Virus record (IMG/VR): IMGVR_UViG_3300028584_001241
DNA: 64,000 nt
Origin: a virus
Direction: 5' to 3' (one strand)
The notes under the pieces: generated by a model
What the model was told of the DNA's origin: nothing
The model's input: only the letters and a program-made list of their open reading frames with translations
The model's database searches: none
Shown here: positions 18,160 through 30,964 of the stretch, in pieces
How positions within the stretch are numbered: position 1 is the stretch's first letter
Layout of the letters: the number at the start of each line of letters is the position of its first letter
Program-made: the position numbers and the translations under genes

Positions 18160-18330
18160 ATGAACGTAAAAAATGATAACGTATCTCCCGAAGAAGAACT
18201 ACTTGATAAAAAATTAGAATTTATTTTTGGTGTCGATGAGATAAAACAAAAAGACTTATTAAAAATAAAAAGTCTTTTGGTTGATTTGTATGAAGAAAAA
18301 TATGGAAGTATACCTATTTTAAATCTTTAA
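18160..18330 (+). CDS. Small protein (56 aa)
   Basis: GAGGT RBS and TTGACA-N17-TATCAT promoter; not in ORF track. Confidence 0.6.
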   Translation: MNVKNDNVSPEEELLDKKLEFIFGVDEIKQKDLLKIKSLLVDLYEEKYGSIPILNL

Positions 18331-19757
18331 CCTTGTTTTACTTTTGGCATAAAGTTTTGATGGTGTATGTTAACTTGATCAGAGCGTTTTCTCTTATCTG
18401 TATCAAGAACACTTAAATCATATTCCATACCATCAAATTTTTGAACACGTTTAAACTCATTCGTTTTTGTGAAATGATTTCTAAACATAGCCAACAAATC
18501 GGGTGTCTTCTCAAATAATTTGGTTACTTTCTCTTTATAGGATTTAACCATTTTCTTAGCTTCTTCAAATTCCTTCTGGAATGTTTCTGTTCTAGCAACA
18601 CCACGATAGCTAGTATTAAACAAATCTTTTGATTCTAATGTATTAAGACTTTTACCATGTCTCAACAATTCATTGTTACCAGACTGATTGATAGAATGCG
18701 GGGTAATGTCATAGAATGGAGCAAATTCAAAGTCTGGCTTATTAGTCAAAGGATTTGAGTTCTGGTTCAATAAGACTTTAAGATTACCACCATGCATATC
18801 AGTGTTACCAATAAGAAGGTTAAAAGACATTGCTTTCATTAAATCTTTTTGAACTTTATTCTTCTTGGCTTCTACATATTCCTTAGTATCACCATCAAGA
18901 TTAGACGAATCATGAACAGCATTAGCAAGCTTCATAGCAACAAGGTAGGAATGTTCATAGTTCTCATCATTTAACTTGGCTGTATTGTTTGAGAAACACT
19001 TAGCCATATCATTCATGTCATACGATAATTTGGTGCTGTAAAAAGCATTGTTATCTGCTACCTGAATAGCTGTACCTCTCTCATCTTTAATCACATTAAG
19101 TTCAAATGAATTCGATTTGTTGAAGTTTTCCATGATCAAGTAAGGACGATTATCAATGGTTTCTAATCTGTATTTAGGCACATTCAATCCGCTTTCTTTT
19201 AATGTTTCAAGAGCAGCGAATTCTAACAATGTTTTGTAGTCATTAGCAGGGTCTGCTGCAGCTTTAATCATAATGTGACTGCCCATTACTTTGTTGCCAT
19301 CTTTACTTAACTGAATAGATTTAACAACAAGACTTTCTTTATCACCTTCTAAGTCGGATTTAACTGCATTATCGAACACACTTGATATAGAATCATTGTT
19401 AGTCACAAACTGCCCTTTTCTGAGGTAGATTTGTTCATTTGAAATATCACCAATTGATAATTCAGTAAAACCTTTCTTAGCTGTGTTCTTGACGAAATCA
19501 AACACACTACCCACATCAGTCATAGGTCTGCCATAATAAGCATCAACTTCTCTTTTGTTGGTTTTCAACAGTGTTAAGATGTCGCTTCTGTCCAAGTAAT
19601 CTTTCTTAGCCAGTTCACGAAATGAATTTTGTCCATCAATAGTAAACGATACTTTAGCTTTGTCATCGTTGATATGTTTTATAGTGCCGATTGTCTGTTT
19701 CTTGCCATTTATATCGTAATAAGCAATTTCTTCGCCAATTAATTTGTAATAATCCAT
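18327..19757 (-). CDS. HipA-like Ser/Thr kinase
   Basis: IMIK, LEFAAL..L...GL.VP, NLLIGNTDMHGGNL, FAPFYDI. Confidence 0.8.
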   Translation of the reverse strand: MDYYKLIGEEIAYYDINGKKQTIGTIKHINDDKAKVSFTIDGQNSFRELAKKDYLDRSDILTLLKTNKREVDAYYGRPMTDVGSVFDFVKNTAKKGFTELSIGDISNEQIYLRKGQFVTNNDSISSVFDNAVKSDLEGDKESLVVKSIQLSKDGNKVMGSHIMIKAAADPANDYKTLLEFAALETLKESGLNVPKYRLETIDNRPYLIMENFNKSNSFELNVIKDERGTAIQVADNNAFYSTKLSYDMNDMAKCFSNNTAKLNDENYEHSYLVAMKLANAVHDSSNLDGDTKEYVEAKKNKVQKDLMKAMSFNLLIGNTDMHGGNLKVLLNQNSNPLTNKPDFEFAPFYDITPHSINQSGNNELLRHGKSLNTLESKDLFNTSYRGVARTETFQKEFEEAKKMVKSYKEKVTKLFEKTPDLLAMFRNHFTKTNEFKRVQKFDGMEYDLSVLDTDKRKRSDQVNIHHQNFMPKVKQG

Positions 19758-19814: not shown

Positions 19815-20267
19815 ATGAATAATATAATATTTCTAGATATAGATGGCGTATTAAAACATCCCACCAAGAATAGCTGGTATCCAGAGGCCGTTGCTTGTCT
19901 TAATGCTTACTGCAGCTATAACAATATAGACATAGTTATCTCATCGACATGGAGACTGATTAAAGATATTGAATTCTTTAATACACTGCTCAATAATCGA
20001 GTCATAGGTATAACGCCTGACTTATCAAAATATCATGAAAAACATACCCGAGAAATCGAATGCAGTCTGTATGTAAAAGACAATCAGATTAAACACTATG
20101 CCATGATTGATGATAAAACAGATGACTATAAGAATCTCTCAAACGTCATTAAAACAAATGCTCAGATAGGTATTGATTTAAGTATACTTTTTAAAGTAAA
20201 CGAAATATTGAAAGGCAGTCTTGATTATTTGATTACTGAAAGAATTGATATAGTGGATAAGTTTTAA
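19815..20267 (+). CDS. HAD phosphatase, Swiss-Army-Knife RNA-repair type
   Basis: FLDIDGVL, IVISSTWR, IGITPDL, MIDD. Confidence 0.8.
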   Translation: MNNIIFLDIDGVLKHPTKNSWYPEAVACLNAYCSYNNIDIVISSTWRLIKDIEFFNTLLNNRVIGITPDLSKYHEKHTREIECSLYVKDNQIKHYAMIDDKTDDYKNLSNVIKTNAQIGIDLSILFKVNEILKGSLDYLITERIDIVDKF

Positions 20268-25470: not shown

Positions 25471-25565
25471 GATTAATTCCTTATGTTAAAATAATGGCTA
25501 ATTATATCATGAAACAAAAAAATAGGCAATAAAAAAGAGAACACGCAAGTTCTCTTTATTTAATT

Positions 25566-25651: not shown

Positions 25652-25775
25652 TAGAAAGGAATGGATTCGAACCATTATCACTATCCACATGGCCTATAAA
25701 TCACGAAAATTTATCTGACATGGGATTTAAAGTTACCGGGTCATCCCGGCTGCTCGCCCGTTAAGCTACCTTTCT
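25652..25775 (-). ncRNA. tRNA-like RNA with 4-6 nt anticodon loop and 58-nt extra arm, no encoded CCA
   Basis: Acceptor AGAAAGG/CCTTTCT, D-arm, GCCGGG-ATGA-CCCGGT, T-arm AATGG-TTCGAAT-CCATT. Confidence 0.7.
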
Positions 25776-25951: not shown

Positions 25952-26029
25952 ATATTGAATGAACGCCCCCGGAAACCACGGCTTCAATCCAGTCTTACCT
26001 TTAAAGTAAAACCCCCTTATTCTTTTAAA

Positions 26030-26758: not shown

Positions 26759-26764
26759 ATAGTA

Positions 26765-26951
26765 GTATTTCTTCTAACGCTTCACGGATGCAAGCATCTC
26801 CACGCTTCGAAGTGTCGGTAAATACCTACCGGATATACTTATCAGAGGTCAAACTACAGTGATTAAGCTGTTTCAATCATACTTGACCAGTATACTAGTT
26901 GCTAATCAGGCAACACGGCTCTTTTTAAGTTAGCTTACAACAAACTAACTC
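26765..26951 (-). ncRNA. Candidate structured ncRNA between tRNAs
   Basis: About 190 nt without a credible ORF; several nested or adjacent hairpins. Confidence 0.45.
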
Positions 26952-26956
26952 GTGAT

Positions 26957-27133: not shown

Positions 27134-27205
27134 TGGTGGAGCCTCGTGGCCTCGAACCACGTTCATTTATTGCTAAATGGTTTTTCCCGTTAAACTAAAC
27201 GCCCC
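27134..27205 (-). tRNA. Atypical or pseudo tRNA with Ala acceptor identity and collapsed anticodon loop
   Basis: G3:U70, ACCA end and intact T-arm, but anticodon arm is CATTT-AGCAAT-AAATG (6-nt loop). Confidence 0.6.
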
Positions 27206-28094: not shown

Positions 28095-28123
28095 ATTATA
28101 AACCTATTTTTCAAAAAAGTCAA
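28095..28123 (-). promoter_or_regulatory. sigma70 promoter P1 driving the leader/attenuator
   Basis: TTGACT-N17-TATAAT. Confidence 0.85.
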
Positions 28124-29397
28124 TGCAATAAGATATTTTTCTTAACTTCTATAATCTGTTGTGGAGATCTCGGCTTATTAAGATAGCCAGCCAAGTTTTG
28201 GCCTCTTTTCTTATCATGGCATCTTGGGCACCAAGACTTTCGATGCTTAATAGATGAATAAGTAGTATTCCACACATGTCCATCAGCACATTCAAATGTT
28301 AAGGGAGATCGGCCATTCACATATTCAGTAGAAATAAATTTACCACCTTTACTCATAGCATGTTCGTTCATCTCTTTAATAGGATCAACCAATTTGTTGT
28401 TAGCACAATAAGGGCACCACTGATCGTTATAAATAATACCATCGCTGGCCTTTTCAAATGAATGTCCTTCCGAACAAACAAAACTTAATTTTTCTTTTAA
28501 GTTTTTGAAACTAGTAGAGATGCATTGACCGCCTTTTGAAATAGCAATGGCCGAGACTTCTTCTAATGTATCACCTTCTCGCAATCGTCCATTACAATAA
28601 GGACACCAATGACCTTTTTTAATAGATTTAGGCACTGCTTCCCATTCATGTCCTTTTTCACATTTCCATTTCGCTTTTGAATTATTCCCTAAATACTTAA
28701 CAGATAAGCATTCACCATTCATTTTTTTTGCCAATTCCTTGAGTTCATTAATTTTGGAACTTGAGAAAGGTAGTTTTTTAAATTTGCTAATTTGATCTGG
28801 TGTAACAGTGATATTTAAATCTTTTTGAAAAATGCTAGTTAAATAATTAATGAAGGTATCTCGTGAATAGCCATCTTCCAAATATTTAATTTCAATAAGA
28901 TGAACACTATTTTCCTTACACAAGGTTCTTACTTTTTCATCACGTTCTTTTTGATGTTCAAAGGTCTTATGATTTCGATCATGAAAATGGGGGATATGGT
29001 GATAGTGTTGTTCACCATGATATTCAAATGCAATCCCAAGATCGGTATTGAATCCATCTAGAATACATTTACGTTCGCCTTCAACTTGAAGCCATTCTGG
29101 GCTAGATCCTTTAAAGGGTTTATCAAATACTGTTTCAAAAAATTGACGAACAAGGTTTTCGGTTTTATTCGAACGGCAAGATGGACACCATGTTCCACGC
29201 TTAATATCATTAGGACGTGCAGACCATTCATGCTGATCAATACATCTGAAATTCATCTTAATATGACTGGCTACATATTCATTATCCAGACATTCACCAC
29301 CATTTTCGGCAGCAATAGAGGTGATTTCAAGATAATGGTCTTGTTTTGTTTTCAGATGTTTTGCTTTATGGGCTGATAATTTTACAGTATTAGTCAT
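28120..29397 (-). CDS. Zinc-ribbon repeat protein with PD-(D/E)xK/Vsr-like nuclease domain (putative homing endonuclease)
   Basis: Four C-x2-3-H...WCPxC repeats; LDGF..IAFEYHGEQHY..D..VR core. Confidence 0.75.
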   Translation of the reverse strand: MTNTVKLSAHKAKHLKTKQDHYLEITSIAAENGGECLDNEYVASHIKMNFRCIDQHEWSARPNDIKRGTWCPSCRSNKTENLVRQFFETVFDKPFKGSSPEWLQVEGERKCILDGFNTDLGIAFEYHGEQHYHHIPHFHDRNHKTFEHQKERDEKVRTLCKENSVHLIEIKYLEDGYSRDTFINYLTSIFQKDLNITVTPDQISKFKKLPFSSSKINELKELAKKMNGECLSVKYLGNNSKAKWKCEKGHEWEAVPKSIKKGHWCPYCNGRLREGDTLEEVSAIAISKGGQCISTSFKNLKEKLSFVCSEGHSFEKASDGIIYNDQWCPYCANNKLVDPIKEMNEHAMSKGGKFISTEYVNGRSPLTFECADGHVWNTTYSSIKHRKSWCPRCHDKKRGQNLAGYLNKPRSPQQIIEVKKNILLH

Positions 29398-30177: not shown

Positions 30178-30190
30178 ATGGAGATGTAGA

Positions 30191-30964
30191 ATGATAACAA
30201 AAAACCTAAAATATTTTGTCTTGTCGTTATTAATGTTGTCACCTTCATTAATATACGCCACTGAACAAGAAATTAATACCCCGCCGAATGTTGAAAGCTT
30301 TCCGATGACTTTTACTCAAATGGCAAAAATAGTCGGTCCAAGAGACACCGTAGACATCTTTATTCCAAAAGATTCATACCTAATGGACACTTTATTTGCT
30401 AATGAAACTAATACTAAACGTGTCTATGGAATTGACTTTGGTAAACTTAGAAGAGGTGTTGTCTCCTATGCCGACGATAAACTATCTCAACGTATTATTA
30501 ATACTGTGCCAAAAGACAATGGCACTTTAATCACACTTAATCTGAAAGCCCTGAAACCTCAAACACTAAGAGTCATAGATGACAAATCAGATAACATGTT
30601 TTTTAATGAATATGAATTAGGTGACAGCATTGTATTAAAAGCCAATTTAGTTTTATCACAAGGAGCATTAGGGACGGATTACGATACCTTAAATAGACAA
30701 TATAAATATTTAGCTGAACGCTATAAAATGTTTTTTAATGATAAACACTATTTTAGCTTCCTTTTTGCTGACGGACGTGCTGACTATCCTGCAAAAATAT
30801 ATACAAACACCACCATAGACAACGAAAGAAATGCTCCCGCATCCAGAATAACGTTGACAATCATGAATATGAAGACTTATGAGAATTATGATAAGATCAT
30901 GGATAAAATGGCTGACAGAGCTTTTGATGAAAACTATAAACAATTAAATGACATCTTAAAATAA
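30191..30964 (+). CDS. Secreted protein (paralog of 29515)
   Basis: Signal peptide and shared motifs. Confidence 0.75.
   Translation: MITKNLKYFVLSLLMLSPSLIYATEQEINTPPNVESFPMTFTQMAKIVGPRDTVDIFIPKDSYLMDTLFANETNTKRVYGIDFGKLRRGVVSYADDKLSQRIINTVPKDNGTLITLNLKALKPQTLRVIDDKSDNMFFNEYELGDSIVLKANLVLSQGALGTDYDTLNRQYKYLAERYKMFFNDKHYFSFLFADGRADYPAKIYTNTTIDNERNAPASRITLTIMNMKTYENYDKIMDKMADRAFDENYKQLNDILK

Follow-up and report, generated by a model that had tools for sequence, protein, structure and literature searches.

The stretch of DNA analysed here, a 64,000-nt viral record hereafter called the window, has a G+C content of about 31%, and most of the ORFs scanned in it had no Pfam or PHROG match. Its minus strand contains a tRNA operon that runs from promoter to terminator, with the genes in the order Ala(TGC), a small ORF, Ala(TGC), Arg(TCT), a degenerate Ala-like tRNA, Ala(TGC), Arg(TCT), a 190-nt spacer, Ala(TGC), Arg(CCT), a 177-aa ORF, two CAT tRNAs, a 124-nt tRNA-like RNA gene (from here on, the element) and Ala(GGC). 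The signals of the operon are the following:

28095..28123, minus strand: promoter-like site TTGACT-17-TATAAT, with 11 of 12 matches
27967-27936, minus strand: attenuator-type terminator
25534..25557, minus strand: intrinsic terminator closing the operon, past tRNA-Ala(GGC)

The element is thus the second-last gene of the operon, lying 7 nt past the CCA of the second CAT tRNA and 11 nt ahead of tRNA-Ala(GGC). We found no promoter or terminator of its own at the locus, indicating that it would be co-transcribed with the tRNAs and would have to be cut out by the same enzymes; from its position in the operon, its transcription is very likely. Its parts, given in the order in which they are transcribed after the entry for the whole gene, are:

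25652..25775, minus strand: whole tRNA-like RNA gene, 124 nt, from A1 to the discriminator A73, with no CCA encoded; matched by the Rfam tRNA model
25776, minus strand: U at position -1 of the element; T in 5/5 variants, the remaining spacer bases being variable
25769..25775, minus strand: 5' strand of the acceptor stem, AGAAAGG; pairs 1-6 invariant, pair 7:66 being G-C, G.U or G.G
25752..25766, minus strand: D arm, GCTT-AACGGGC-GAGC; A14, A15, G18 and G19 invariant, 20/21 variable
25735..25750, minus strand: sealed arm at the anticodon-arm position, GCCGGG-AUGA-CCCGGU; identical in 5/5 variants
25727..25734, minus strand: single-stranded 8-nt linker, AACTTTAA = AACUUUAA; AAC-GUAA in variant L123
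25683..25726, minus strand: extra 44-nt arm, ATCC-CATG-[TCAG]-ATAAAT-TTTCGTG-ATTTAT-[AGGC]-CATG-T-GGAT; from RNAalifold and the alignment of variants
25677..25682, minus strand: AGUGAU, read as one extra A plus a class I variable loop, G44 U45 G46 R47 U48 (inferred numbering)
25660..25676, minus strand: T arm, AATGG-TTCGAAT-CCATT; loop invariant
25652..25659, minus strand: 3' strand of the acceptor stem, CCTTTCT (25659-25653), and discriminator A (25652); followed by CTT in all variants

The acceptor stem AGAAAGG/CCTTTCT, the D arm and the canonical T arm reported in the first-pass annotation are therefore all present on the minus strand, with U8-A9 between the acceptor stem and the D arm and A26 after the D arm. 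The sequence likewise bears out the description of a GC-rich arm of 6 bp (one G.U and five G-C pairs) that closes only the 4-nt loop AUGA at the place of the anticodon arm. This sealed arm has no 7-nt loop, no U33 and no purine 37, so that normal decoding is impossible. The same annotation assigned a nested hairpin of 58 nt to the variable region. There is indeed a 58-nt insert between the sealed arm and the T arm, and it contains a 44-nt hairpin, but we place it differently: the GUGAU that precedes the T stem resembles an ordinary class I variable loop (G46, U48), which suggests that this loop is retained and that the insert sits at the 43/44 junction instead of being a class II variable arm. 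Defined in this way the insert has 53 nt, made of the 8-nt linker, the 44-nt hairpin and one A. The hairpin consists of 4 bp, a U bulge, 4 bp, a 4x4 internal loop (UCAG/AGGC), an A-U stem of 6-7 bp and a loop of 5-7 nt. Finally, the lack of an encoded CCA, also noted before, is real: the discriminator A is followed by CTTTT, whereas CCA is encoded in each of the 11 remaining tRNA or tRNA-like genes of the array.

The Rfam tRNA model (RF00005) matched the element from end to end with 36.9 bits (E=9e-07; gathering score 29), a match that emerges only when a short region is searched, because the scan of the whole window filtered the element out. In this alignment, 55 nt of the variable region are treated as an insertion, and the anticodon arm was locally skipped and left unaligned. 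The possibility raised at the outset that the RNA belongs to a known Rfam family was thus not borne out, since only the generic tRNA model matched it. ARAGORN in default mode made no call at the element. The minimum free energy fold of the single sequence had a z-score of -2.79, and RNAalifold, run unaided on five variants, returned the same five-helix cloverleaf. A covariance model built here from the element, R1, scored 142-156 bits across the five variants; with it, the element was single-copy in the window and in a related 181-kb contig, the search of both yielding no paralogue.

Relatives were reached from one IMG/VR contig and from the two ORFs flanking this segment of the array. They comprise five sequence variants, with identities of 100, 97.6, 95.2, 92.8 and 92%, spread over about 17 metagenomic contigs, which range in length from 181 kb to 1.86 Mb and include some of 1.28-1.86 Mb. 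In IMG/VR, only one contig contains the element; we found no similar sequence in GenBank phages, PLSDB plasmids or GTDB genome contigs, and literature searches returned no description of the 124-nt RNA. A diverged array, L167 (ENA ERZ27271673), lacks the element, and R1 detected no remote homologue there. In its place, a gap of about 190 nt between Arg(CCT) and Ala(GGC) (L167:5626-5812, plus strand) contains two other structured RNAs, neither with an Rfam match; the first combines an acceptor-like helix of 7 bp (AACAGAA/TTCTGTT) with a T arm (CTAGG-TTCAAGT-CCTAG) and lacks a D arm. These arrays seem to collect RNAs made of a minihelix plus a payload.

To evaluate conservation, we compared the element with its immediate surroundings. 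When the last four genes were aligned jointly, variable columns numbered 15/124 in the element, 10/76 in tRNA-Ala(GGC), 0/77 and 0/75 in the two CAT tRNAs and 13/35 in the three short spacers, so that the spacers touching the element vary three times as often as the element itself (Fisher p=0.0017). Among the same relatives, both CAT tRNAs were 100% identical and the Arg and Ala tRNAs 88-100% identical. Conversely, the degenerate Ala-like tRNA of the same operon showed 72-74% identity (L001, L123), against 92-97.6% for the element, and the DNA of the next ORF 75-81% identity, falling to 63% at four-fold degenerate sites (against L125 and L123). Judged by these comparisons, the element evolves like a real tRNA. 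That a relic within the same transcript drifts and the element does not argues against simple hitch-hiking, although the whole array is more conserved than the flanking genes, and part of the conservation of the element could thus reflect recent exchange of the cassette.

The degenerate Ala-like gene (window 27134-27205, minus strand) is the second tRNA-like gene of the operon. It encodes CCA, has G3:U70, and its anticodon arm has shrunk to CATTTA-GCAA-TAAATG. The corresponding position in L001 and L123 is taken by a different, longer arm, which ARAGORN reports as '???(tt)' or Lys(ttt), suggesting that this gene, unlike the 124-nt element, evolves fast. Two spacers of the operon are also conserved in relatives. 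The 78-nt spacer from the stop of the 177-aa ORF to the first CAT tRNA (25952-26029, minus strand) is 89-99% identical, above most other spacers compared, and may serve in processing, as an internal promoter or as a small structured RNA. The structured spacer of about 190 nt between Arg(TCT) and Ala(TGC) (26759-26956, minus strand), with no ORF, is 78-99% identical.

The changes found among the five variants largely preserve the structure, with 99.5% of the pair cells in the five-helix fold being standard pairs. In L133, the T-stem pair 49:65 is G-C instead of A-U, both bases having changed in a compensatory way. L123 combines a C-to-A change with the loss of one G, which turns ATCC..T-GGAT into ATCA..TGAT, keeps the four pairs and absorbs the bulge, and three C-to-U or A-to-G stem changes produce G.U pairs. 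The sole broken pair is the last of the acceptor stem, G.G in the variant found on the largest contigs. Altogether, 5/6 one-sided stem changes keep pairing (p=0.018, assuming that one in three would do so by chance). The covariation score itself was not significant, being reached in 106/500 shuffles, a control with little power for variants that are at least 92% identical, and paired and unpaired columns did not differ in how frequently they vary. The structure is therefore well supported by thermodynamics, the tRNA model and the pattern of change, and is not proven by covariation.

Variation is concentrated in D-loop positions 20/21, position 47 (A/G), the linker and the apical loop, which reads TTTCGTG, TTTCGTA, TCTCGTA, TTTTGTA or TCTAGTA. 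On the contrary, no change is seen at U8, A14, A15, G18, G19, G46 or U48, in the T loop, in the sealed arm or in the UCAG/AGGC internal loop, with the tRNA tertiary-contact positions constant throughout. This is the pattern expected of an RNA that folds into the tRNA L-shape while keeping two extra features. The comparisons of variable columns, of the relic and of stem changes thus agree with the earlier proposal that the structure is under selection and not in decay.

None of the known systems that we compared combines a class I core, a sealed arm and a fifth arm at 43/44, and the nearest are functional analogues, not relatives. With class I tRNAs (RF00005) the element shares the 7-bp acceptor stem, U8, A14, a 4-bp D stem, G18G19, a 5-bp T stem with the TTCGAAT loop, a 5-nt segment resembling the variable loop, the discriminator base and the place in a tRNA operon; it differs in the 4-nt loop on a 6-bp stem, the 53-nt insert and the absence of CCA. 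In the tRNA cluster of phage T4, small stable RNAs that are not tRNAs are co-transcribed and co-processed with tRNAs, a parallel that we take as a lead only. The mascRNA/MEN-beta and gammaherpesvirus tRNA-like RNAs are also tRNA-shaped, excised by tRNA-processing enzymes, non-decoding and devoid of a normal anticodon loop, but they are eukaryotic or from eukaryotic viruses, have no sequence relation to the element, and lack a large extra arm and a tRNA operon; Rfam RF01684 did not match the element. Class II variable arms have about 3-7 bp and are far shorter than the 44-nt arm. Class II tRNAs (Leu, Ser, bacterial Tyr and Sec) and allo-tRNAs (PMC5389517) resemble the element in having a helical arm between the anticodon and T arms. 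However, in class II tRNAs the arm begins one or two bases past 44, ends 1-2 nt short of the T stem and is accompanied by a class II D arm and a normal anticodon loop, and we rejected this assignment because the element has unpaired linkers of 8 and 6 nt, a class I D arm (4-bp stem, 7-nt loop), a complete class I variable loop of five bases and no anticodon loop. The tRNA-like domain of tmRNA is likewise an acceptor and T-arm module without anticodon, present in bacteria and mobile elements, but tmRNA has G3:U70, no D stem, pseudoknots and a tag frame, none of which occurs in the element: its 3:70 pair is A-U, it has no reading frame, and neither ARAGORN nor Rfam made a tmRNA call on it. YrlA-type Y RNAs (RF02553; PMC4201824) are also tRNA mimics of bacteria and mobile elements, although permuted and ending in a Ro60-binding stem at the place of the anticodon arm. 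The ends of the element form a normal acceptor stem, as in a tRNA, and RF02553 did not match it up to E 10.

The proposal that the element is a decoding tRNA after all would require a short intron or editing, or the use of the linker CUUUAAA (anticodon UUA) or of the apical loop as anticodon, for example to read the in-frame stop codons at the head of the pth2 operon; genes that begin with amber exist in the window, where we found no suppressor tRNA. We enumerated all single excisions between A26 and the T stem, and none restored a normal anticodon arm, so the possibility of an intron-containing tRNA that splices to a normal tRNA, raised initially as a way in which the annotation could fail, did not materialize. 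A 7-nt loop on a 5-bp stem remains after only two excisions, neither of which combines U33 with purine 37; the better one uses the apical loop, and its 'anticodon' reads UCG, UUG or UAG among close relatives. The intron mode of ARAGORN gave only an implausible Phe(aaa) with a poor stem, and its calls on deletion derivatives are to be read with the caveat that it accepts almost anything with an intact frame, mostly with a 2-nt 'anticodon' on the sealed arm. The bulge needed for a bulge-helix-bulge motif is lost in L123. A group I intron would be much longer than the 53-nt insert. The linker fits the C32-U33-NNN-A37-A38 pattern, but it has no closing stem and is altered to C-GUAAA in L123. As for the apical loop, its middle base and position 33 (U or C) change among close relatives, and an anticodon at the tip of a helix of about 19 bp does not fit the geometry of a tRNA. 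A CUA anticodon occurs in no loop. This reading is largely refuted, and we consider it extremely improbable.

If the element does not decode, it could still be a relic, that is, a tRNA duplicate, probably of a CAT tRNA, that lost its anticodon loop, gained a hairpin and persists inside a tolerant, conserved operon. The adjacent CAT tRNA is indeed the best R1 match after the element (24.4 bits), another clearly degenerate tRNA exists in the array, and the covariation statistics are weak. Nevertheless, the genuine relic of the operon retains much lower identity than the element, the adjoining spacers vary more often, stem changes are compensated, and neither the sealed arm nor the internal loop differs between variants, making decay an unlikely account of the locus. 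A duplicate of the adjacent CAT tRNA gene is the likeliest ancestor, although the inference is weak; the two genes have in common the D arm (TAGC-T-AACGG) and the stretch running from the variable loop through the T arm. The main functional rival is a charged, non-decoding carrier: after addition of CCA, a synthetase that ignores the anticodon, LeuRS being the best fit, would load the RNA, which would then serve as an amino-acid donor off the ribosome or as a sink. The identity of E. coli tRNA-Leu resides in A73, A14, A15-U48, G18G19 and A20a, the sequence of the variable arm being immaterial and the anticodon arm dispensable for leucylation (PMC9976931). In the element, A73, A14, G18G19 and an A15-U48 Levitt pair (in our numbering) are present and invariant, and the same family of replicons has a large tRNA-Leu array. 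On the other hand, CCA is unencoded in 5/5 variants, contrary to every neighbour, A20a is absent from the 7-nt D loop, A15-U48 is common to the adjacent CAT tRNA and may only reflect ancestry, and we saw no tRNA-dependent transferase in the window; taken over all possibilities, we consider such a carrier quite unlikely.

By contrast, the reading that we favour is that of a functional RNA. Its tRNA frame is under purifying selection and it is unable to decode, which places it among the tRNA-like non-coding RNAs, a functional class and not a sequence family; the core of the original annotation, a tRNA-shaped non-coding RNA with a conserved frame and no decoding arm, is thereby sustained. The element is probably a functional, non-decoding tRNA mimic that is cut out by tRNA-processing enzymes and acts through its tRNA-shaped top half and its extra arms. 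It would be transcribed within the polycistronic tRNA operon and RNase P would free its 5' end, given the invariant U at -1 and the standard acceptor and T minihelix. An acceptor/T minihelix, an elbow and U at -1 are the features that make a normal substrate for RNase P and 3' maturation. The 3' end could be produced by trimming or by RNase Z, and the conserved lack of CCA, in comparison with eleven neighbours, suggests a different 3' fate, either CCA addition by the host enzyme or an end that stays without CCA. The product, presumably stable, would keep a complete class I core, with the acceptor, D and T arms, the elbow and the bases for tertiary contacts, and a second conserved arm would project from the 43/44 junction. 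Such an RNA would most likely occupy a protein that recognizes the shape of tRNA through the acceptor and the elbow, with specificity provided by two invariant features that tRNAs lack, the sealed arm and the internal loop in the extra arm, and would act as a decoy, sponge or adaptor in the tRNA-centred conflicts for which this genetic element is equipped.

Several observations narrow these roles. A decoy for anticodon nucleases in the strict sense is unlikely, because the RNA has no anticodon loop to offer, and a decoy that acts stoichiometrically would do little against a nuclease with multiple turnover. However, immune nucleases have been described that read the anticodon stem or the body of the tRNA instead of the anticodon (PMC12445682, PMC13056530), which makes a decoy or adaptor role plausible. 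We rejected mimicry of a target of the P2-OLD type: the sealed arm has a paired CNG motif (CCG/CGG, positions 28-30/40-42), but the motif is common to several ordinary tRNAs of the array and is not discriminating. We also considered a 'codon display', in which AUGA complements U33-CAU and the GCAA of the second mimic complements U33-UGC, as T-box specifiers do, and rejected it as a general rule because the GCAA loop is not conserved in relatives. The resemblance of the insert to CRISPR-DR43 (Rfam, 14.8 bits, E=5.6) was noise, and as an antisense against the window the insert stayed at chance level, its best match being 11 nt (E=0.58) within a coding region. Provided that the RNA is functional, a decoy or adaptor for a tRNA-binding protein is a reasonable but tentative option, and some other role carries just as much weight; an amino-acid carrier outside decoding and a structural or processing role within the operon transcript would both be rather unlikely.

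The neighbourhood of the operon is devoted to tRNA supply, repair and mimicry. A nearby gene for a PTH2 peptidyl-tRNA hydrolase opens with an in-frame TAG, and a HipA-like kinase and the HAD_SAK_2 protein lie about 5 kb downstream. The HipA_C-like kinase (18327-19757, minus strand) adjoins the RNA-repair HAD domain protein HAD_SAK_2 (19815-20267, plus strand), and the pair is syntenic with a 276-aa ORF in those relatives with contigs long enough to cover it, among them L131, where the tRNA array is absent. This conserved 276-aa ORF, adjacent to the array, was considered as a possible partner; it had no match in Pfam, PHROG, the ESM Atlas or Foldseek, and its structure model was poor (pLDDT 60.5). 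The roles first suggested for the RNA, a decoy for nucleases or tRNA-sensing defences or a scaffold processed by RNase P, would fit this setting of PTH2, HAD, HipA and mimic genes and the position in the operon, which are circumstantial evidence.

Other features of the region were recorded in passing. A 13-nt amber cassette opens pth2 and downstream genes, and a third near-copy of it, with one mismatch (TGTAGAATGATAA), lies at window 30185-30197 (plus strand), at the start of ORF 30191-30964. Directly upstream of the tRNA operon there is an HNH homing-endonuclease-like gene (28120-29397, minus strand; PHROG 559, 7e-50) with a DUF4379 zinc finger, in a position that recalls the homing endonuclease SegB inside the T4 tRNA cluster (PMC2330249). 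In L133, an IS605-family OrfB/TnpB gene (L133:855-2003, plus strand) is inserted directly after the array, between tRNA-Ala(GGC) and the homolog of the 276-aa ORF. A second array, at 77.6-79.5 kb of G001 (the IMG/VR contig of L001) and at L144:1027-2913, contains eleven tRNA-Leu, with anticodons TAG, TAA, CAA, CAG and AAG, plus one Gln(TTG), a class II tRNA with an 8-nt anticodon loop (ARAGORN 'cgct') and a Y-RNA-like permuted mimic.

tRNAs are a main battleground between bacteria and mobile elements. PARIS, retron effectors, bacterial Schlafens and P2 OLD all illustrate conflicts over tRNAs, including cutting of the anticodon stem (PMC11464382, PMC11555353, PMC13056530, PMC12445682), and the replies known from mobile elements are replacement tRNAs and repair enzymes. 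The RNA described here would add a different reply, a full tRNA frame that is unable to decode, lying beside genes for RNA repair and tRNA recycling, in a setting of megabase-sized elements with several other tRNA mimics. A more specific proposal, which we regard as doubtful although worth stating, is that a giant plasmid-like element uses this RNA in conflict or anti-defence: matured by host tRNA-processing enzymes, it would act as a decoy or adaptor whose sealed and extra arms trap or redirect a protein that reads tRNA shape. Candidates for such a protein would be a toxin that modifies tRNAs or an immune nuclease that cleaves them in the anticodon stem. At present, the value of the element is that of a well-defined candidate in a narrow family and not of a solved mechanism. 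It offers a compact, natural five-arm tRNA frame and a defined substrate for processing enzymes, synthetases and tRNA-binding immune proteins, and, if its role as a conflict RNA is true, it would be a bacterial counterpart of the viral tRNA mimics and a new RNA-based form of counter-defence.
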